DNA of 45,678 nt from IMG/VR virus record IMGVR_UViG_2663763326_000005; one strand, written 5' to 3'. Each line of letters opens with the position of its first letter. Position 1 is the first letter of the stretch. A program made the translations under genes and the position numbers. Under the pieces are notes generated by a model, which had not been told where the DNA came from, searched no databases, and saw only the letters and a list, made by a program, of their open reading frames with translations. This DNA comes from a virus (taxonomy: Duplodnaviria > Heunggongvirae > Uroviricota > Caudoviricetes). Positions 1-36,427 of the stretch are shown here, in pieces.

Positions 1-855
1 TGGCATTATTACTGGAGCCACTGCAGTTCACCTTTATGAGTCACGCACTGCTGATTTCACTGGTAGTTTCCATACCCTGTGCGCTGCTGTCGGTCTTTCT
101 GGTCCTGAAAGGTTGGGCACTGATGGGTGACGCGATGAGTCATGCGGTTTTTCCTGGCATCGTGCTTGCCTGGATTCTGGGGTTACCTTTGGCTACAGGG
201 GCATTCGTCGCCGGAGTATTCTGTGCGGTGGCGACGGGATACCTGAAAGACAACAGCCGAATCAAGCAAGATACAGTGATGGGGATTGTTTTTTTCTGGC
301 ATGTTTGCCGCAGGTCTGATCTTGTATATTGCAGTCAAACCAGACGTACATCTTGACCATATTCTTTTCGGCGACATGCTCGGGATAACCATCGGCGATA
401 TAATCCAGACGATGATTATTGCCGGGCTGGTTACACTTGTTATTAGCGTAAAATGGCGGGATTTTTTGCTGTTCAGCTTTGATTATCAACAGGCGCAGGT
501 AAGCGGTTTGCATACGAGATGGCTGCATTATGGGCTGCTGTGCATGGTCTCTCTGACCATTGTGGCGACGCTGAAAGCGGTAGGTATCATTCTCTCCATT
601 TCTCTGCTCATTGCGCCTGGCGCCATTGCGGTACTCCTGACACAACGCTTTCATATTGCGCTCCTACTGGCGACTGGCATATCGGTAATAGTGTCAATGA
701 CTGGTGTCTGGTTGTCCTTTTTTATCGACAGCGCACCAGCTCCGACGATTGTCGTCTTATTCGCGGTTTTGTTCATCATGACGTTTGCCGTTACCAGCAT
801 CAACGCACGCAAAAAGGGAAACTCCCATACACAGGATCTGTTATCACCCAATTAG
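1..855 (+). pseudogene. sitD: Mn/Fe ABC-transporter permease SitD-like gene, 5-prime end outside window; reading frame switches at a T7 run (289-295)
   Basis: ORFs 36..356 and 286..855 are in different frames but together read as one polytopic permease (ALLLEPLQF..MSHALLISLVVSIPCALLSVFLVLKGWALMGDAMSHAVFPGIV.. then ..SGMFAAGLILYIAVKPDVHLDHILFGDMLGITIGD..). The frame opens from base 3. The join is at gttttttt (289-295). Confidence 0.6.
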
Positions 856-3607: not shown

Positions 3608-6600
3608 TCAACTGATACTGATGCCGGCTGTTGATTTCTTCATCACGACAACAAGAAGGTCGCTGATACTGGTCGTTGGCGTCCAGTTATTTGCACCATA
3701 TGAAGAAACATTGAAAGTCAGGGTGACATGGCCGTGTCCGGCAGGCATATCAATGACTGATGAAAATACCCTGCTGACATCCGTCGCGGGTTGCTGAAAG
3801 ATTTCCTGTCCGTTCTTCAGCACCTGCAGCTTACAGGTTGAATACCAGTATGACTGTTGGTTGTTGCTGTTGAAGTTTTCATGCTTACCACCGCGAAACA
3901 GAACGGGGGGGACGACTATCTGACGGTCAAAAGCCTGGTCATCGTACACAGTGACCGTTATTGTACCGCTGGCATAACTGCCATTTCTCGGAAAGGCTTT
4001 TCCCACCGTTTTGACAATATCACCTTCAATCTGGTTAGCTGACAGTTTTCCCAGAATCCGACAGTTCTGGTTAATCGTGACATTATTGAGCGTCCCGGAG
4101 TTCGCATTCACGTTACCGCTGATATCCGCATTTCTCGCAGAAAGTCGACCATCAGGTGTCAGTGAAAACGTTGGGGATTGCCACCGCTGGTAATGGTGGG
4201 AGCCGTCAGATATTTCAGGAACACTTCGTTCATGAATATCTGATCGCCCTGCCCAACAAACATCGGCTTTGTATTGCCATTCGCAGGATTAATCATCGCA
4301 ATCCTGTCCGCCGCCAGCAGCACCTGACTCTGCATACCGTCAGGGGTATTCTCAATACCGGCACCAATACCCGCGATATAAAGGCGTCCGTCCTGCATCT
4401 GCTGCAGCTTCACAGCCCACATGCTGTTCAGGTTATTATTTGTATCAACCTGAACCTTCTGTATCTGCTGGATCGCTGCACTCTGGTCTTCCAGTTTCTT
4501 ATTGACGGTCTGCGTGATTTCATTGCTGACATCCGTAATGGACGTCCTGATTTCAGCCAGGTCAGGCGCAAGCTGACCGTTATCAATCTGCGTCCACAAC
4601 TCCTGAGCCAGATGGGTTTTCCCTATCTCTCCTTTGAAAAAATCCAGATAGCCGGATGCATCATCACTCGGCTGGCCAACAGCCTCCACAAATGCCGATT
4701 TGCCAACGGTGTTCACACTGCGAATGTAAAAATAATAATCATGGCCCGGTTTGATATTGATACTGGCGGCTATCCAGTACAGCGCCGTACCAAGATAACG
4801 CGCGCTGGCTTCAACCTGCCTGATATCCGCAATCCGCTTTTCCGAGAACCAGAACTCAAACTGTACCGTCGGATCATAAACGGCAAGATGCGGCGTTGCG
4901 GTTATCTGAAAATAGCCCGGCGTCAGCTCAATCCGCGATGGCGCTGCCGGTGCGGCAATCCGGAACGATACCGACGCCGGATCCCCCTGCTGCCCCCACG
5001 CATTTACCGCCCGGACTGTCAGCCTGTAGTTCCCCAGCGCCAGTTGCCTGAAGCGGTATGTGGTTTCCGTCGTCCTGGCCGTGCTGACCAGCCGCTCACT
5101 GCCGTCATCCGCTGCCACGGTCAGGCGAAGCATAAAGCTCACCCCCTTCACCACCTTCGGTGTGTCCCATCGCGCCAGCACCTGATATTCCCCGCTGTCT
5201 GCGGTGACTTCTGCGGTCAGGTGCTGCACCGCGGGCGGCGTGACACCATTCACCGTGCCACTCTGTTCGCCGTCAAAGTGCGCCCCGTTATCCACGATGG
5301 TCTCTTTTTCCGGCACATGCTGCACGGCGGTGATGGCATACGTGCCGTCGTCGTTTTCACGGATACTCACGCAGCGGAACAGTCGCTGGCGCAGCGTCGG
5401 CAGCTTCAGCCCCATACGCTGTATTCAGCAACACCGTCAGGAACACGGCTCACTTTCACCTTCACGCCGTCGGTGACGGACTGAACCTCCACGCTGACCG
5501 GATTGCCACTTCCGTCAACCAGGCTTATCAGCGTGGTACCGGAGGATGGCAGCGTGATTTCACGGTCGAGCGTCAGCGTCCGGGTCTGGCTGTTCACCGC
5601 CAGCACACGACCACCGGTGCTGATACCGGCATAGTCATCATCGCAGATTTCAATGACATCCCCCGGTACATGGCGAAGCCCTTCAGCACCCACGCTGAAG
5701 TCCACGGTCTGCGTTTCCAGCAGCTCCGTTTTAATCAGCCACAGCCCGGCGCGGTGTGCCTGCCCCCGGCTGGTACAGCCAAAGGCATCCATCTTCGTGA
5801 CGTTACGGCCGTAACGGGCAATGGCCTGCGTATCCTCCACGAGCTCTGTCGCCGTCTCCCAGCCGTTATCCGGGTCAATCCAGTTCACCTCAACGGCATT
5901 ATGGCGGTCCTTCAGGGCGCTGAAGCTGTAGCGGAACGGCGCGCCATCATCCGGCATCACCACATTACTGCGGTTATAGGTCCACACCTTATCTGATGGT
6001 CGGTCCTGCACGAACGTCAGCGTCTGCCCGTTCCATACCGGCATACAGCGCATCGCCGAGCAGAAATCACTGAGCACATCCCACGCCTTGCGCTGTGTGG
6101 TCAGGTACGCATTACAGGTAATGCGCGGCTCCGTGCCGCCAAAGCCGTCCGGCACCGACTGGTCGCAGTACTGGCCGATGACATACAGCGCCCATTTATC
6201 CACATCCGCCGCACCAAGACGTTTCCCCATGCCGTAGCGCGGATGGGTCAGCATATCCCACAGACACCAGGCCATGTTGTTGCTGTATGCCGGTTTTAAC
6301 GTTCCGTCCCAGATACCGCTGTATTGCCGCGTCTGCGGGTTATAGTTCGACGGCACCTGCAGAATGCGCCCGCGAAGATGATAATTACGGCTCACCTGCT
6401 GGCTGCCGAACTGCTCCGAGTCCACCTGCACGCCAACCAGTGCCGTGTTCGGGTAGCACTGTTTCACATCGATGATTTCGGTGTATGACGACCAGAGCGT
6501 TTTGTTCAGCAGCTGGTCTGTGGTGCTGTCCGGCGTCATCCTGCGCATCCGGATATTAAACGGGCGCGGCGGCAGGTTATCCACCACCACCGAGGCCAGA

Positions 6601-7088
6601 TACTGCGAGGTGGTTTTGCCCTTAATGGTGATGTCTTTTTCCGTCACCCAGCCACCGTTACGCTGTATCTGAACCAGCAGGCGAACTTCCGACGGATTCC
6701 TGTCTCCCTTTGAGGTGGTTTCCACCAGTGCCTGTACACCGAAGGTAAAGCGCAGACGGTCGATGTTTGCCGACGTGATGGTCCGGGTGATCGGCGTGTC
6801 ATATTTCACTTCCGTACCCAGCACCGTCTCGGAGCCGGAGGATTCAAATCCCTCCGGCGGTGACTGCTCCTGCTCACCGGCCCGGAACACCACCGTGACG
6901 CCGGATATATTGGTATTCCCCTCACTGTCCAGCACCGGCGTACTGTTCAGCAGCACGCTTTTTAATCCATCCACCGGACCTTCAACCGGCCCTTCGCTGA
7001 TGGCATCGATCACACTCAGCAGCTGCGTGGACTTCAGGTTGTCCTTCGCTTCGCGCGGGGTATGCCCCTTACTGCTGCCTTTACCCAT
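3608..7088 (-). pseudogene. J: tail tip / host specificity protein J, reading frame interrupted twice
   Basis: ORFs 5406..7088 (MGKGSSKGHTPREAKDNLKSTQLLSVIDAISEGPVEGPVDGLKSVLLNSTPVLD...), 4159..5415 and 3608..4111 are consecutive segments of lambda J in three frames. Joins are at a C4 run (5410-5413) and a G4 run (4173-4176); adding one base at each restores a continuous J-like frame. Confidence 0.85.
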
Positions 7089-14011: not shown

Positions 14012-14585
14012 CGCTTTATTACCATCCTCAGTTGATGCTGCAGCGCATAGCCCAGCTCTTTCGGAAGACGTTCACGCCGTATCCGCTCAATATTCTGTTT
14101 AAACGCCGTGGTCAGCGGCACTGCCATCGGGATTTTCACCACATCAATGGGGTAACGGTTTTTCCCGGCCACACGCTGCATGACATGCCATCGGCCATTT
14201 TTCAGTTGCTGAATAAACGCGCCGGGAATACGACGGTTTCCCACCACAAGCACGCTGTCGCCACCTTTCAGGGATGAACGCTGCCCCTTTTTACGACGCC
14301 TGCGTCGGGACAGGACAACCCGCGCGTTACCCAGCCTGATTACGGGCAAATCCCCCGGTTAACCTTGATTCTGGCCTGCGGATTTTTGACCGTGGCCCTT
14401 TTCAGCCTGGCCCTTTCCTTTACCAGTTTCCGGCGTACCTTTGTCTCACGGGCAACCTGTGACGCCGACTGCGATATCGCGGATGAAGCAACGCGGTTAA
14501 TGGCCATTGCGGCGGCACCGGGCACCGCCGTTCTGCTGATACGGCTGAGGTTTTCAACGGCCTGCTCAAGACCTTTTATGGCCAT
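14008..14585 (-). pseudogene. Z: tail completion protein Z, reading frame interrupted once
   Basis: ORF 14340..14585 (MAIKGLEQAVENLSRISRTAVPGAAAMAINRVASSAISQSASQVARETKVRRK..KVNRG) and ORF 14008..14349 (..VIRLGNARVVLSRRRRRKKGQRSSLKGG..) are the N- and C-terminal parts of lambda Z in different frames. The join is at a C5/G5 run (14352-14356). Confidence 0.85.
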
Positions 14586-28541: not shown

Positions 28542-29573
28542 ATGAAAATTAACAAGATATTATCATCTGCAACACTATTGTATGGTATGTCAATGGCCAT
28601 GTCGGTCGGGAGTTGTGCAACACCTGTCCAGACTAATCTTCCTGGTTACACCCCGGGTGCAGATATCATTAGTGTTTCACCGACCAGAAACCAGGTCGAT
28701 CTCATTGGTGATGTTGTTTATTCCCAGATAAAAGGAACTCGTTCTGTCAGACAGCTTCACATGTCAGTTCTTGTCCCGCGAACAAATGATTTAAAACCAG
28801 CCATTATTTATTATCCCGGCGGCGGATTCATGTCTTCTGAACATGACAAATTTATTGAAATGAGAATGGCTCTGGCAGAAGCTGGTTTTGTTGTGGCCGC
28901 TGTAGAATACAGAACAATTCCTGATACATTTCCAGCACCAGTTGAGGATGGAAAAGCTGCAATACGTTACCTGAGAGAGCATGCCAGCAATTATGGGATT
29001 GATCCTCAAAGAATCGGAGTTCTGGGTGACTCTGCCGGTGGATGGCTTGCCCAGATGATGGGAACTACAAATGGTGACAAAACCTTTGATAAAGGTGACT
29101 TTCTTCAGCAATCCTCAGATGTTCAGGCAGTTGCCACACTTTATGGGATTTCTGACTTGTTGAATATTGGCGAGGGGTTCCCTGAATCAGTGCAGGAGGT
29201 TCATCGCTCTCCTGCCGTAACCGAAGCCTTAATGATCAATGGCCCTGCATTCAGAAATTTTGCGGGAGCCCCCATCACAGCGTCAAAAGAAAAAGCGCTA
29301 AACGCCAGTCCAATCGGACATATGAAAGGAGTAAAACCCCCATTTCTTATTATGCATGGTAGCAAAGACACTCTGGTTTCACCTGAGCAAAGCGCCAAAC
29401 TATTCAGGATGTTGAAGAAGAACGGTGATAACGCTGAGTACGTGCTGGTAGAAGGGGCCGAGCATGGCGATAAGACATGGTATCAGCCAATTATTATAAA
29501 CAGAGTCGTTGAGTGGTTTACTAAAAACCTGGGAGCGCCTATAAAAACAGCTCCCCAACAACAAAACCCGTAA
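28542..29573 (+). CDS. secreted alpha/beta-hydrolase (esterase/lipase-like), 3-prime end clipped by IS insertion
   Basis: Signal-peptide-like N-terminus MKINKILSSATLLYGMSMAMSVGSCA; oxyanion-hole-like YYPGGGF; nucleophile-elbow-like GDSAGG; later H/D candidates (HGSKDT, AEHGD). The stop TAA (29571-29573) lies inside the IS66 left end. Confidence 0.7.
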   Translation: MKINKILSSATLLYGMSMAMSVGSCATPVQTNLPGYTPGADIISVSPTRNQVDLIGDVVYSQIKGTRSVRQLHMSVLVPRTNDLKPAIIYYPGGGFMSSEHDKFIEMRMALAEAGFVVAAVEYRTIPDTFPAPVEDGKAAIRYLREHASNYGIDPQRIGVLGDSAGGWLAQMMGTTNGDKTFDKGDFLQQSSDVQAVATLYGISDLLNIGEGFPESVQEVHRSPAVTEALMINGPAFRNFAGAPITASKEKALNASPIGHMKGVKPPFLIMHGSKDTLVSPEQSAKLFRMLKKNGDNAEYVLVEGAEHGDKTWYQPIIINRVVEWFTKNLGAPIKTAPQQQNP

Positions 29574-29599
29574 GCGTCAACGGAGCACCGTATTGACGC

Positions 29600-31213
29600 T
29601 TATTTATTGGTGAGTACTACGTTCCATGGCAGGAGTTCGTCAACTCGGTTGGAAGGCCATTCCGGCAGTACGCTCAGGATATGGCGCAGATACGCTTCCG
29701 GATCGATACCGTTCAGACGGCAGGTGCCGATCAGCCCGTACAACAGTGCTCCACGCTCGCCGCCGTGATCGCTGCCAAAGAACATAAAGTTTTTCTTTCC
29801 GAGACAGACTGCACGAAGCGCTCTTTCCGCAGCATTATTATCCGCCTCCGCCAGACCGTCATCACTGTAATAACAGAGGGCATCCCACTGATTCAGTACA
29901 TAGCTGAACGCTTCGCCCAGTCTGGATTTTTTCGACAGCGTACCATTCTTCTCCACCATCCATTCATGCAGCGACGTCAGTAACACTTTGCTTCGCTGCT
30001 GCCTGACGGCAAGACGCTCTGACTCCGGTAATCCCCGTATTTCATCCTCGATGGCGTACAGTTCACTGATTCGCTTCAGGGCTTCTTCTGCCGTCGCACT
30101 TTTGCTGCTGATGTATACATCGTGGATTTTTCGCCGGGCATGGGCCCAGCACGCAACTTCTGTCAGTGCACCACCTTCACGTTCTGCACTGAACAACCTG
30201 TCGTAACCTGTGAACGCATCCGCCTGCAGGATACCCCGGAAGGGGCGGAGGTGTTGCTCCGGGTGTTTCCCCTGCCGGTTCGGCGAGTACGCGAACCAGA
30301 CCGCTGGAGGAGATGACGAACCCACATTGCGATCATCCCGGACATACGTCCAGATACGCCCTGTTTTCGCCTTTTTCTGACCCGGTGCCAGTACCTTTAC
30401 CGGTGTGTCATCAGTGTGAACCTTGCGGGTGTTCATTACATAACGGTACAGGGCATCATTCACCGGTGTCATTAACTGGCAGCACGCGTCAACCCAGTTG
30501 GAGAGTAAGGCCCGGCTCAGTTCGACACCCTGGCGGGCAAAGATTTCACTCTGACGATACAGTGGCAGATGTTCGCAGTATTTTCCCGTTAACACGCGGG
30601 CAAGTAATCCGGGGCCCGCGATACCACGCTCTATCGGGCGGGACGGCGCCGGTGCTTCAACAATACAGTCACATTTTGTACAGGCTTTTTTTACCCGTTC
30701 TGTGCGGATCACTTTCAGGGCACTGCTCACCAGTTCCAGCTGTTCAGCGCTGACTTCCCCCAGATAATCCAGCTCACCGCCACACTCCGGGCAACAGCTT
30801 TCTTCTGGCTCCAGGCGGTGTATTTCACGGGGAAGGTGTGCCGGTAACGGACGACGATGGCGCGACTGTCGCAACTGGCGGGGAACCTGAGGATCGTCTT
30901 CCCGCCCACTGTAACGATCGCTGTCCTGTTCACGTTGTTTCAGCAGAGCCTCAGCCAGTTCAACTTCACGACGCAGTTTTTCAGAACGGGTACCGAACAG
31001 CATCCGGCGCAGTTTTTCTATCTGAGCCCGCAGATGTTCTATTTCCCGTTCATCTTCTTCGATCTTTTCTTCGGCACGTGTCAGTGCAGAGCGCAGGAAG
31101 GCTTCCGTCTCTTCAACCAGACTCAGTTGCTGGTCTTTCTGACGGAGGGCTTCAGCCTGCTCAGAGAGCAACCTTTCCAGCTCTGCGATGCGAATGAGGT
31201 ATTTCTGACTCAT
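29600..31213 (-). CDS. IS66-family transposase (TnpC/Orf3)
   Basis: 537-aa ORF with N-terminal coiled-coil/leucine-zipper-like region, Cys cluster (CPECGGEL, CTKCDC) and DDE-type core typical of IS66 transposases. Confidence 0.85.
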   Translation of the reverse strand: MSQKYLIRIAELERLLSEQAEALRQKDQQLSLVEETEAFLRSALTRAEEKIEEDEREIEHLRAQIEKLRRMLFGTRSEKLRREVELAEALLKQREQDSDRYSGREDDPQVPRQLRQSRHRRPLPAHLPREIHRLEPEESCCPECGGELDYLGEVSAEQLELVSSALKVIRTERVKKACTKCDCIVEAPAPSRPIERGIAGPGLLARVLTGKYCEHLPLYRQSEIFARQGVELSRALLSNWVDACCQLMTPVNDALYRYVMNTRKVHTDDTPVKVLAPGQKKAKTGRIWTYVRDDRNVGSSSPPAVWFAYSPNRQGKHPEQHLRPFRGILQADAFTGYDRLFSAEREGGALTEVACWAHARRKIHDVYISSKSATAEEALKRISELYAIEDEIRGLPESERLAVRQQRSKVLLTSLHEWMVEKNGTLSKKSRLGEAFSYVLNQWDALCYYSDDGLAEADNNAAERALRAVCLGKKNFMFFGSDHGGERGALLYGLIGTCRLNGIDPEAYLRHILSVLPEWPSNRVDELLPWNVVLTNK

Positions 31214-31243
31214 GACCGTTTTTATAATGCGGTCAGGAGTTTT

Positions 31244-31594
31244 TTACAACATTGTCAGTGAGTTACGGCTGGATGTTTTTGGCTGACGCCAGTCCAGCTT
31301 ATCGAGGAGCATTGCCAGTTGCGAGCGGGTAATGGATACCTTGCCGTCACGTACCGCAGGCCAGATAAACTGGCCTTCCTCCAGGCGTTTGGTGAACAGG
31401 CACAGACCATCAGCATCAGCCCAAAGAATTTTGACGGTGTCACCCCGTCGGCCACGGAAGATAAACAGGTGACCGGAGAAGGGATTATCATTCAGCACAT
31501 GTTGTACCTGTTCTCCCAGTCCGTTGAAGGATTTACGCATATCGGTAACGCCGGCAACGAGCCAGATACGGGTACCTGATGGGAGTGAGATCAT
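31244..31594 (-). CDS. IS66-family accessory protein TnpB (Orf2)
   Basis: MISLPSGTRIWLVAGVTDMRKSFNGLGEQVQHVLNDNPFSGHLFIFRGRRGDTVKILWADADGLCLFTKRLEEGQFIWP; typical IS66 Orf2. Confidence 0.85.
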   Translation of the reverse strand: MISLPSGTRIWLVAGVTDMRKSFNGLGEQVQHVLNDNPFSGHLFIFRGRRGDTVKILWADADGLCLFTKRLEEGQFIWPAVRDGKVSITRSQLAMLLDKLDWRQPKTSSRNSLTML

Positions 31595-32016
31595 CTTCCC
31601 CTCCCGGTCAGTTCACGGATCAACACTGTGAGCAGCTCTGGCGATGGATTTTCCAGCGTCATGTTACCGTGACGGAATTCCACCTTGCAGGAACTGGCAC
31701 TGACTCTGGTCTGAGTGGAAGTGGATAAAGACGGCGCAATGGCCGCCACAGGTTCTTTCTGCTCATCCGGCGTTATTTCTACAGGTAATAATTCAACGCC
31801 AGTGTCAGAAGAGGTCGTTACCGGAAGACGCCGCGAAACACGCCCTTCGTTCTGCCAGAGCCTGAGCCATTTGAAAATAACATTATCATTGACGCCATTT
31901 TCACGTGCAATCTGTGCAACACAAGCTCCAGGTTGTGATGCCAGTTCCACCATACGAAGTTTGAATTCATTCGAATAGTTTTTACGAGGTTCTTTTCGCC
32001 AGTCCTGTAATTCCAT
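31591..32016 (-). CDS. IS66-family accessory protein TnpA (Orf1)
   Basis: 141-aa ORF with HTH-like segment (ASQPGACVAQIARENGVNDNVIFKWLRLW); overlaps TnpB start (ATGA). Confidence 0.8.
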   Translation of the reverse strand: MELQDWRKEPRKNYSNEFKLRMVELASQPGACVAQIARENGVNDNVIFKWLRLWQNEGRVSRRLPVTTSSDTGVELLPVEITPDEQKEPVAAIAPSLSTSTQTRVSASSCKVEFRHGNMTLENPSPELLTVLIRELTGRGR

Positions 32017-32130
32017 ACTTAGATGTCCGTCTATATCAGATGGGCGTCTAAGTTACCAATTCTCGTCTGATGGCTACATACGGCGGTCAGTTTACGCTTA
32101 CCAAAACCCAAACGCTAACCTGTAAAAAGA

Positions 32131-32161: not shown

Positions 32162-35100
32162 TTAACTATCCTTTTCAGGTAGTTTTACAACATAAGTCCT
32201 TATTGTTTTCTCATATGTATTTTTGCTATTCGTTATTTTGGCCTTAATCCAGTGATAACCACTTTCATAGGTGCTGAATTCCGAAGCTGCATTACCTGTC
32301 CAGTGTAACGTTACTGTAGCAGGCTCCATTTTGACCCGTTGAGAGTCTGGACTATCTTCACTACCAGCAGAAAACTCAACCGTACCAGATAATGGGTTTC
32401 CAAAATGATCGACAAATCGAGCATAAATACCTACTGGAGATCCATCGTTTGTCTCATAACCAGGATCTTTTGTTAGAGTCAATACTCCATTTGCGTCATC
32501 AGCGTACAGGGAGAATGATTTCACCGCGCTAACATCACTGCCAAGTTCGTTTAAGGTCGCCGTTAATTTATACGAACCAACCGTTCGACCATGTACGCTT
32601 ACCGTAGCCTGACCGTTCTCATCAGTCGTTACTGTGGTTTTATCAACCACCAACGCACCATATTTAGACGGCCCAGATGTCTTAACATTCAATGCTCGAC
32701 CACTTAATGCTTCGCCTGACTTACTTTTCAACAGTAACGTAAATACCAGATTGTTGGTATCGCTCACTACAGCCGAAGATGCAGATGATGTGATCTCCAA
32801 CACAGCCCCCTTCACATCCGTCACGGCATCAATATTCTGGCTTGCGGTTATGCGTTTCCCATCCAGAACATACTCGGCCTGAATTGTGTACTGGCCTGAT
32901 TTCGATGCAGTGAACTGCGTTGTTGCCTGTCCATGAGCATCCAGTTGCAGATTACTACTGGTCAATGATGCTCCCGTCGATGGTGTAATCGTTAAATCCA
33001 CCTCGCCTGTAAACGCATTGTTATTCGCATCAACCAACTGAATGTTTACTGTTGCGTTTTCACTGCCATCGGCCACAATCTCCTGTTTTGATACACTCAT
33101 ATTCAGTTCTGCAGAAGCAACATCGGGCACAAAAGTTAACTTAACGCTGCCAGATTCCACGCTATGGGAACCGTCAGTCACCCGTGCAGTCACCGTGTAC
33201 TCACCAGCTTTCACCGTTGTAAGCGGAACAGAAACATGCCCTGTTGAATCAGTCACGATATTTGTTGGTACAGATAATCCTTCAGATGAGGTGATGAGCT
33301 GAATCTTTTGCCCATTGACCGACGCATTCGTATTTGTCAGCTGCACATCTAATACCGCTGCATCCTTACCATTAGCAGGAATATTGGAAATTAAACTACT
33401 GCTTTCAGGCGTCAGTGACAGTGAAGCTCCGGTCATATTTGATGCAAAGGTCACTGTTAACTCAGTAGACATCTGAGAACCAGCATGAGCTGTAATCACG
33501 TAAGACCCCGGAGTGGAGCTTATTAACGCAAAAATAGCATTACCATTTTCGTCAGTTGAAACAGCATGTTCACCACCAACTTGAGTTATCCCTGCTGGTA
33601 AAGACAATGTGACAGCATAACCAGGAACAACATTGCCGAAACGGTCCGCAAGGCTTACAGTTACCATATTTCTCTGTTTTCCATCAGCCAATGCATTATT
33701 TTGGCTGGCTTCAAACTGAGAGAATGTAACCTGCTGCCGGTCCTCAATAAAGGTGATTTCTTTCTTAACACCTGAGAAATCATGACTATCAGATTTAACA
33801 CCGATAGTAATCTTACCAGCTCGTTTTGAAGTTACTGTCGCGCTATAGACACCGTCTTTTTCCGTTACAGTCCCAAACTCGACTCCTTCTGCCTGGTTAA
33901 GAGCATAAAAGCTCAGAGTGTTATCACCAGTGATTGCATTTCCTTGTGAATCCTTCACTGCCAGTTGTAGATTGATATTGTAACCAACTACCTGTTCTGC
34001 TGGTGCAGCGGTTAAAACAGCACTGACCTCAGAATCAGGTTCTGTTGTTGCTGTTTGCTTAATACTGAGAGTAAATGTTTTTCCCTGAACTTTTGCAGTT
34101 ACACGTACCGTACCAGCCTGCGAACCAGCAGCCAGAACAGAGCGATATACCCCAGCAGAGATTTCCTCTACCGCGCCTAATGACGGAGCAGTTACCGTTT
34201 CACGCTGTCGAGCACTATTGCTATCTGCTGTAAATTCCACTGACATTTCAATGTCATCAGCCAGTCCGGTTAATGCCTTACCGTTACTATCTTTCAGGCT
34301 TAATACTATCGGATAAGTGGATTGGCTATCAGCAGAGATCGTCGGCGACGAATCTCCATCCAGTGTAAAAGACGAATCAGCTGTCGATACATCACTATCA
34401 GTAATGGCTGCCTGCTTAATATTCAGAGTAAAGGTTTTTCCCTGAACTTTTGCAGTTACACGTACCGTACCAGCCTGCGAACCAGCAGCCAGAACAGAGC
34501 GATATACACCAGCAGAGATTTCCTCTACCGCGCCTAATGACGGAGCAGTTACCGTTTCACGCTGTCGAGCACTATTGCTATCTGCTGTAAATTCCACTGA
34601 CATTTCAATGTCATCAGCCAGTCCGGTTAATGCCTTACCGTTACTATCTTTCAGGCTTAATACTATCGGATAAGTGGATTGGCTATCAGCAGAGATCGTC
34701 GGCGACGAATCTCCATCCAGTGTAAAAGACGAATCAGCTGTCGATACATCACTATCAGTAATGGCTGCCTGCTTAATATTCAGAGTAAAGGTTTTTCCCT
34801 GAACTTTTGCAGTTACACGTACCGTACCAGCCTGCGAACCAGCAGTCAGAACAGAGCGATATACCCCAGCAGAGATTTCCTCTACCGCGCCTAATGACGG
34901 AGCAGTTACCGTTTCACGCTGTCGAGCACTATTGCTATCTGCTGTAAATTCCACTGACATTTCAATGTCATCAGCCAGTCCGGTTAATGCCTTACCGTTA
35001 CTATCTTTCAGGCTTAATACTATCGGATAAGTGGATTGGCTATCAGCAGAGATTGTCGGCGACGAATCTCCATCCAGTGTAAAAGACGAATCAGCCGTCG

Positions 35101-36427
35101 AGACACCACTATCAGTAACGCTAATATTCATCACGGCATAGTTGGAAACGTTGCCTCTGTTATCCTGTACTGTGGCTCCAACATTCCACGAATTTACACC
35201 TTCGCTTTTATAAGCCGGTAAAGTGATCTGCCATGATGTGCCATTTCCACTGATCTTGCCGCCAGCCGCAGTGAATGCACTATCATTCCACTGTACAGAC
35301 TTGATACCACCACTAGCATTGTTGATTGTCAGTGTTACAGGGATGATTGATTCCCCCTCCCCCTGAACAGACTCTGGCAAACTGATTTTCAGTGCATGCT
35401 TCTTCTTGTACTCCAGAACAATGTTGTTATTTCGTTCAACAAAATCATAACGCCGGTTCTGGACTTCTCGCATAACTGCAACATTATCGCTGCTAAGCTG
35501 TTCAGCCAAGGAAACGCCCGGGCGATAATTAAACTCAACACCAAAGGTTGTATCGTGAGTGTTGCTCTGTCCTTGCTTATGCTGTGCAGAAAACTTAATC
35601 AGAGGAACTGGTGTATAAGAAATTCCCCCAGTAACTGCGTAAGGGTTTTCCTGCAGGTTATCGCTTCCAAATAACCCGACATTTTTACCATAATATTTTT
35701 CAAACTGAATAGATGCCCCTAATTGCGGATAAGCAGGTAGCCATCCTTCAGCAGAAAAATCCCAGCCATTTGCAGGTCTTTCCAGATAATCATCAATATC
35801 ACGACTGTTCTTCCAGTCAGATAGACCAAAATAGGTATTTACACCAAGCCTGAAATAATCCCTCCAGTACTCAACCCCAAAACCTGCACGAGAGTGACTA
35901 CGACTTAAATCGTAATCATAGAAAACATTCGCACCCAACATTGCGTTATCAGGAGTGAAATGACGAATCCCCAAACCAATATTGGTCTGATTTCGGTCAT
36001 CAGTACGATGTAGTGATGTCTGACTGAATAACACATAATCCTGAGTATCCAGCCATGGATATAAAAAGTCGAATGATGAATCCTTCAAGGAAAAAGAATC
36101 ATCGACATTAAGCTTGATGCGCGCATTGCCATATTGTTGCAACCAGTCGACGACCTCTTTTGTCGCCTGAGTTGATAAAGTATTTACAGCAAAACTACTT
36201 GCATTATTATTCGCCAGGCTCTGACCTGCACTTGCTGCAAATGAGGCCACTTTATTTGCATGCTCATCGCTGGCATAAATTTGCGTAACATCTTTATTAC
36301 CAGATGATGCAAAACTGTTTGCTGGGATCAAAGAAAGAGAAACTGGAGATAATATCTGGGTAACAATTACCGACCATGTAATCGCGCCAGATGCAGTTTT
36401 TTTTAACTTTTTATTCACAGTGGTCAT
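32162..36427 (-). CDS. inverse autotransporter adhesin (intimin/invasin family), 1421 aa, with Ig-like repeats
   Basis: N-terminal signal/anchor, then a beta-barrel-like region (DFLYPWLDTQDYVLFSQTSLHRTDDRNQTNIGLGIRHF.., GFGVEYWRDYFRLGVNTYF, EGWLPAYPQLGASIQFEKYYG), then a long series of Ig-like passenger repeats including three near-identical 119-aa units. AT-rich upstream region. Confidence 0.8.
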   Translation of the reverse strand: MTTVNKKLKKTASGAITWSVIVTQILSPVSLSLIPANSFASSGNKDVTQIYASDEHANKVASFAASAGQSLANNNASSFAVNTLSTQATKEVVDWLQQYGNARIKLNVDDSFSLKDSSFDFLYPWLDTQDYVLFSQTSLHRTDDRNQTNIGLGIRHFTPDNAMLGANVFYDYDLSRSHSRAGFGVEYWRDYFRLGVNTYFGLSDWKNSRDIDDYLERPANGWDFSAEGWLPAYPQLGASIQFEKYYGKNVGLFGSDNLQENPYAVTGGISYTPVPLIKFSAQHKQGQSNTHDTTFGVEFNYRPGVSLAEQLSSDNVAVMREVQNRRYDFVERNNNIVLEYKKKHALKISLPESVQGEGESIIPVTLTINNASGGIKSVQWNDSAFTAAGGKISGNGTSWQITLPAYKSEGVNSWNVGATVQDNRGNVSNYAVMNISVTDSGVSTADSSFTLDGDSSPTISADSQSTYPIVLSLKDSNGKALTGLADDIEMSVEFTADSNSARQRETVTAPSLGAVEEISAGVYRSVLTAGSQAGTVRVTAKVQGKTFTLNIKQAAITDSDVSTADSSFTLDGDSSPTISADSQSTYPIVLSLKDSNGKALTGLADDIEMSVEFTADSNSARQRETVTAPSLGAVEEISAGVYRSVLAAGSQAGTVRVTAKVQGKTFTLNIKQAAITDSDVSTADSSFTLDGDSSPTISADSQSTYPIVLSLKDSNGKALTGLADDIEMSVEFTADSNSARQRETVTAPSLGAVEEISAGVYRSVLAAGSQAGTVRVTAKVQGKTFTLSIKQTATTEPDSEVSAVLTAAPAEQVVGYNINLQLAVKDSQGNAITGDNTLSFYALNQAEGVEFGTVTEKDGVYSATVTSKRAGKITIGVKSDSHDFSGVKKEITFIEDRQQVTFSQFEASQNNALADGKQRNMVTVSLADRFGNVVPGYAVTLSLPAGITQVGGEHAVSTDENGNAIFALISSTPGSYVITAHAGSQMSTELTVTFASNMTGASLSLTPESSSLISNIPANGKDAAVLDVQLTNTNASVNGQKIQLITSSEGLSVPTNIVTDSTGHVSVPLTTVKAGEYTVTARVTDGSHSVESGSVKLTFVPDVASAELNMSVSKQEIVADGSENATVNIQLVDANNNAFTGEVDLTITPSTGASLTSSNLQLDAHGQATTQFTASKSGQYTIQAEYVLDGKRITASQNIDAVTDVKGAVLEITSSASSAVVSDTNNLVFTLLLKSKSGEALSGRALNVKTSGPSKYGALVVDKTTVTTDENGQATVSVHGRTVGSYKLTATLNELGSDVSAVKSFSLYADDANGVLTLTKDPGYETNDGSPVGIYARFVDHFGNPLSGTVEFSAGSEDSPDSQRVKMEPATVTLHWTGNAASEFSTYESGYHWIKAKITNSKNTYEKTIRTYVVKLPEKDS
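34050..35120. repeat. three near-perfect direct tandem repeats of 357 bp inside the adhesin gene
   Basis: The same string (e.g. gcttaat.. at 34057, 34414, 34771) recurs with a 357-bp period. It encodes DSGVSTADSSFTLDGDSSPTISADSQSTYPIVLSLKDSNGKALTGLADDIEMSVEFTADSNSARQRETVTAPSLGAVEEISAGVYRSVL.. three times and produces identical spurious plus-strand ORFs at 34322, 34679 and 35036. Confidence 0.9.

Follow-up and report, generated by a model that had tools for sequence, protein, structure and literature searches.

In phage lambda, the tail genes are arranged in the order Z-U-V-G-T-H-M-L-K-I-J, followed by stf, and J encodes the tail-tip (host specificity) protein gpJ, which comprises 1132 residues, is represented by PDB entries 8iyk and 8k35 and contains six Pfam families (PF24801, PF13550, PF24421, PF24489, PF09327, PF12421). 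Relatives of lambda that carry the sitABCD genes are well documented: among lambda-type phages that had been cultivated from E. coli of the infant gut, 70% carried sitABCD, and phages of such kind, mostly sitABCD carriers, were recovered there as plaque-forming temperate coliphages (PMC6969025). The PhiR panel of lambda-related temperate phages has likewise been used in plaquing assays (PMC13190303). Two deposited phage genomes with J annotated as intact are close to the J region studied here, i.e., PhiR47_2 (PV340567.1) with 99.7% and Lambda_ev087 of the Lambda_ev series with 97.7% identity over a query of 3,701 bases. The host on record for PhiR47_2 is E. coli C. As a resident element of the chromosome, this type of phage is exemplified by E. 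coli strain 4/1-1, in which a lambdoid prophage with an intact gpJ gene of 3,483 nt adjoins icd; its cargo comprises sitABCD, iss/bor and an inverse autotransporter.

The stretch of DNA analyzed here, in the following referred to as the window, has a length of 45,678 bases and contains a J gene that is interrupted as given (Table 1). The initial annotation had described J as being read in three frames, with joins at a C4 and a G4 run, and had proposed that one added base at each run restores the frame. These statements proved accurate in every respect: the open reading frame listing contains J in three pieces of 560, 418 and 167 residues, the two runs are exactly as described, and the addition of one base to each of them results in a single open reading frame of 1160 residues, the product of which does not differ from the gpJ annotated in strain 4/1-1 (WP_001531667.1). 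A continuous J frame of about 1130-1160 codons is absent in the window as given and is present only after both one-base additions have been made. At the first join, the sense strand reads GTATGGGGCTGA, and the ATG of the middle open reading frame overlaps the stop codon of the N-terminal fragment in ATGGGGCTGA. This overlap at 5406-5415 looks like a translational-coupling junction but is due to chance. The second join costs J about 20 residues, which lie between the stop of the middle open reading frame and the GTG of the last one.

Table 1. Position of J, its fragments and further features in the window. Run lengths are given as read in the window; differences in length refer to the complete genome Ecol_AZ146 where this is named.
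Feature	Position	Strand	Remarks
Lambda-type tail-tip (host specificity) gene J	3608-7088	-	Not continuous in the window sequence as given
N-terminal J fragment, 560 aa	5406-7088	-	From ORF listing; natural ATG start; ends ...EYSVWG-stop just past the shortened run
Middle J fragment, 418 aa	4159-5415	-	From ORF listing; ATG at 5413-5415
C-terminal J fragment, 167 aa	3608-4111	-	From ORF listing; GTG start; holds the receptor-binding domain
C4 run in J (G4 in J sense)	5410-5413		First frame break; C5 in relatives, including Ecol_AZ146
G4 run in J (C4 in J sense)	4173-4176		Second frame break; G5 in relatives, including Ecol_AZ146
T7 run in sitD	289-295		Companion break; T6 in Ecol_AZ146
C5 run in Z (tail gene)	14352-14356		Companion break; C6 in Ecol_AZ146
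ISEc23 (IS66-family), 2,532 bp	29570-32101		8-bp target duplication CAAAACCC at 29562-29569 and 32102-32109
Alpha/beta-hydrolase ORF	28542-29573		3' end clipped by ISEc23; 343 aa vs 347 aa
Inverse-autotransporter cargo gene, 1,421 aa	32162-36427	-	Inside the prophage
Repeats of the inverse autotransporter	34056-35118		About three tandem 357-nt units, about 98% alike
Side-tail-fibre-like ORF, 675 aa	1528-3555	-	Continuous

That the gene is indeed J, as originally named, is apparent from its domains and from its likeness to the lambda protein. Pfam families FNIII-A_GpJ and Phage-tail_3 were detected on the N-terminal piece, Ig_J, Ig_J_second and most of Phage_Tail_Tip on the middle piece, and Ig_GpJ_C on the last one (E=5e-39). 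All six families are above the cut-offs in the repaired protein, and in the window they are split over the three open reading frames in the right order. The repaired protein thus contains the full gpJ domain architecture, consisting of FNIII-A, the Phage-tail_3 hub, two Ig-like domains, the tail-tip fibre and the C-terminal receptor-binding domain, in the same order as in lambda gpJ. Comparison with the lambda gpJ structure 8iyk_J gave an E value of 0 at 2168 bits; residues 1-835 align 1:1, and C-terminal stretches match too. Differences from lambda concern the length (1160 vs 1132 residues) and the receptor-binding C-terminal part, which is nearer to the 'A8 gpJ' variant (9wca) than to that of lambda itself. 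The placement of J corresponds to that in the lambda tail gene order, and its position after I and before the side tail fibre gene is also seen in the annotated identical loci of strain 4/1-1 and Ecol_AZ146 and in phage PhiR47_2. The repaired gene is therefore a textbook member of the lambda gpJ family. All defining features are present, and only the unrepaired version in the window lacks one of them, namely the continuous frame. The neighboring side-tail-fibre-like open reading frame is continuous; in RefSeq genomes, PGAP represents this gene as two partial pseudogenes, in contrast to its intact annotation in PhiR47_2, a discrepancy that may reflect inconsistent annotation and not a broken gene.

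When used as a query of 3,701 bases, the J region had matches in 4,653 of 5,426 complete E. coli genomes. ST131-type strains gave the best ones, with 99.9% identity and a span of 3,703 bases, compared with 3,701 in the query. The first base of the window lies about four bases into sitD, and its last base is that of the stop codon of the integrase gene (int) beside icd; its ends were apparently set where the borders of the prophage had been predicted, with sitA-C left outside. Over its 45,678 bases, the window aligns end to end with the complete genome Ecol_AZ146 without a single mismatch; the alignment is interrupted only by four one-base gaps, located in the two J runs and in the runs in Z and sitD (Table 1). 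The same four run-length differences are evident when strain 4/1-1 is compared with the window, which otherwise differs only by an insertion sequence. This element, ISEc23, is also present in Ecol_AZ146. The identical ISEc23 junction is common to 68 complete E. coli genomes and marks a sublineage.

Three of the four indels are run shortenings (two in J and one in Z), the fourth, in sitD, is a lengthening, and all four lie in homopolymers, just as the initial annotation had it for J, Z and sitD. As only 6.0% of the bases of the window are located in runs of 4 or more, the probability that four random single-base indels all fall into such runs is about 1.3e-5. The link of the indels to homopolymers is real and goes beyond chance. 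It does not separate replication slippage from sequencing error, because both predict it.

Homopolymer slippage is a genuine mutational route, and prophages do decay. The four indels could be private slippage mutations in a freshly defective prophage, in which J is cut at residue 560 and has a second break near residue 972, and in which Z and sitD are knocked out too. We regard this reading as unlikely, even though slippage is favoured in runs such as those in which all four changes reside and even though prophage tail genes are dispensable to the host. The difficulty lies in the mutational spectrum, that is, in four indels without any substitution in 45.7 kb since the ancestor shared with Ecol_AZ146. 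In mismatch-repair-defective E. coli mutation-accumulation lines, 30,061 substitutions and 5,324 small indels were recorded when the lines were pooled, so that indels made up 15% of 35,385 events (PMC8510543). With this proportion of 0.15, the probability that all of four events are indels is about 5e-4 even under this mutator spectrum, and a repair-proficient strain would give a value below 5e-4. Slippage would furthermore have to account for four independent knockouts in one 46-kb element with nothing else changed, which is an implausible burst of mutation. One of the four affects sitD, and since this is bacterial cargo rather than a gene of the phage, random error fits better than decay specific to the prophage.

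We searched for the variants in other genomes using exact 80-base queries centred on each J site and 5,426 RefSeq E. coli genomes as the complete set. The version of the G-run found in the window was present in none of 2,886 matching complete genomes and that of the C-run in none of 3,576, and none was present in the band of at least 99% identity; the best matches to the 80-base queries span 81 bases, i.e., they hold the extra base. The T7 version of the sitD run was likewise found in 0 of 2,343 matching complete genomes. The C5 version of the Z run occurs in 4 of 3,317 complete genomes, and in the two of these that were examined (Ecol_542 and A22) the gene is annotated as a 'frameshifted' pseudogene, with neighboring genes frameshifted too in A22. 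In IMG/VR, all 22 matches at the G-run site have G5 and all at the C-run site, among the matches listed, have C5; the exact C4 string found no match in this collection, and neither the C4 nor the G4 string found one in the GTDB representative genomes. At the protein level, an exact look-up in about 15 billion proteins returned neither the 560-residue nor the 418-residue product, and the former is also missing from the gene-position index. The intact protein of 1160 residues, on the other hand, is encoded on at least 1,000 contigs. The fact that both J variants are unique to the window sequence would also be expected of private mutations and in this respect accords with slippage.

The uniformity of the relatives also bears on the idea that the breaks serve a function, be it as a programmed frameshift, as a phase-variable contingency tract that switches J or as the basis of a J protein made of three polypeptides, for which the ATG that overlaps the upstream stop codon could allow re-initiation. 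This chance overlap is the sole point that speaks for any of these possibilities, which we judge, taken together, to be extremely improbable. Relatives uniformly have G5 and C5 and one continuous J frame, and the lengths of the runs are constant across thousands of complete genomes. Runs of 4-5 bases are too short for high-frequency phase variation. About 20 residues of J would be lost at the second break, and a conserved slippery heptamer is lacking, as none of the relatives has any need for it. Given the continuous frames and fixed runs in the relatives, we reject a three-part J as well as programmed frameshifting and phase variation.

The 167-residue C-terminal product differs from the other two fragments in that exactly this protein is called on 80 contigs, and we therefore asked in what context it occurs. 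Ten of the 80 were inspected. Nine are multi-megabase GenBank contigs (GCA_0455.../0456...) from long-read assemblies with J in 3-8 pieces. The G-run of J is shortened in all nine, by one base in eight cases and by two in the remaining one (L155). Within J, the nine assemblies contain 2-15 indels, i.e., 1-14 in addition to that in the G-run, most of them in runs of 5-6 bases, and, in those with the same J allele, no more than 6 substitutions. Eight of the nine carry the same prophage and exhibit 0.8-2.9 gaps per kb over about 10 kb with almost no substitutions. In the ninth (L148), the J allele is only 96% identical, and the G-run deletion therefore recurs across lineages. The tenth place, in E. 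coli UMEA 3175-1 (KE701853.1), is of a different nature: the C5 run is intact, and a CGA to TGA change at codon 982 (5965-5967) yields the same 167-residue downstream open reading frame as in the window. This is a genuine-looking knockout of J in another lineage and as such lends some credit to the slippage reading. A G4 run that circulates as a real allele, as the 80 contigs with the 167-residue product might have suggested, was rejected, as nine of the ten inspected cases are indel-ridden long-read assemblies and the tenth is a nonsense mutation.

Many long-read assemblies in which terminase, portal and tape-measure genes are broken into pieces also have the Z run shortened from C6 to C5. 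Miscalls in other assemblies are thus demonstrable at two of the four sites, the J G-run and the Z C-run, which again argues against slippage. The situation differs for the remaining two sites. None of the error-rich long-read assemblies that we examined has the C4 variant of J, such that this site is no demonstrated hot spot; the only other C4 found at this position is on a single 4.8-kb human-gut metagenome contig with 2.9x coverage, which is 96% identical and contains at least 10 further one-base indels. The change in the T-run of sitD was not seen in the other error-rich assemblies either. As a separate observation, deletions recur at the same J runs and at the Z C6 run in a larger set of long-read assemblies of this prophage (L147-L156 and L158-L167; GCA_0455.../0456.../0515.../0529...) that exhibit 0.8-2.9 gaps per kb, with sense nucleotides 126, 1425, 1944, 2103, 2914 and 3521 as recurrent deletion sites in J. 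Those recurrent miscalls are systematic and create many false pseudogenes.

The window itself has a gap density of only 0.09 per kb, or about one per 11 kb, which is 10-30 times below that of the error-rich assemblies. At one error per 11 kb, roughly 400-450 homopolymer frameshifts would be expected in a genome of 5 Mb, far more than we would anticipate for an Illumina-polished ST131 genome. Both the low gap density of the window and the lack of a demonstrated hot spot at the C4 site count against an error as the cause. The low density also indicates that the sequence stems from a fairly good assembly. A further clue to its source comes from the insertion sequence, as the window reads through a 2.5-kb IS66-family element that is found at 6-13 copies in related genomes. 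Reading through such a multicopy element points to a long-read or finished assembly as the source. Residual errors of such assemblies are mostly homopolymer indels. NA114, an ST131 assembly with known problems, was considered as the origin and dropped, as its published fault is the misassembly of contigs from short reads and nothing connects it with the window.

Taken together, these comparisons lead us to infer, with a probability of roughly 0.85, that both breaks in J are homopolymer errors of the assembly; the breaks in Z and sitD, too, are most probably of non-biological origin. An artefact is favoured because four indels and no substitutions have accumulated since the common ancestor with Ecol_AZ146, because both J variants are absent from the 5,426 complete genomes and because the G-run and Z-run deletions recur in error-rich long-read assemblies. 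The four changes would then be single-base homopolymer miscalls, three under-calls and one over-call, that persisted in the consensus sequence of an assembly made from long reads or otherwise prone to homopolymer errors. The organism would carry an ordinary, intact lambda-type gpJ of 1160 residues, and the prophage would be the usual sitABCD-carrying lambdoid prophage at icd of ST131-type E. coli. Of the two options that the initial annotation had left side by side, homopolymer sequencing errors in an intact phage are strongly favoured, and the defective prophage decayed by slippage is not.

The two readings differ in what they would mean for the phage. If the breaks were real, J would end at residue 560, past the hub domains, and would be devoid of the Ig-like domains, the central fibre and the receptor-binding domain, with Z broken too. 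Because lambda tail assembly starts with J, neither functional tails nor infective particles would be formed; excision and lysis could still proceed. In a single ST131 isolate, a burst of slippage without substitutions would then have disabled J, Z and sitD, as a first step of prophage domestication, and J split at the ATG/stop overlap could still yield an N-terminal hub fragment; we consider this scenario quite improbable. If the breaks are an artefact, the element is an ordinary and common sitABCD-carrying lambdoid phage of ST131-type E. coli that is probably inducible. At face value, the sequence suggests a defective prophage and a broken sitD, a part of a virulence-associated transporter, and reading it in this way would mislead calls of prophage intactness, counts of pseudogenes and the inference of host range. 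For curation, it is useful to know that the G-run in J and the C-run in Z are repeatedly miscalled in public long-read assemblies.

In gene content and gene order, the window matches the sitABCD-carrying lambdoid prophage that resides at icd in E. coli ST131 and other B2 strains all the way from int to sitD, and it differs from that prophage type only in four homopolymer lengths and in the presence of ISEc23. Those four differences have their own counterpart among known artefacts. When 454 and PacBio assemblies of the ST131 strain EC958 were compared, 15 single-base indels and one substitution were noted, the majority within runs of at least 5 bases (PMC4134206). Homopolymer errors in 454, PacBio and Nanopore consensus sequences alike take the form of the same one-base changes, mostly deletions, in runs of at least five bases, occur without substitutions and give rise to apparent frameshifted pseudogenes. 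The long-read GenBank assemblies inspected here contain such errors at a density that is much higher than in the window. The breaks in J, Z and sitD match the known class of homopolymer consensus errors, and neither they nor the J gene itself represent new biology.
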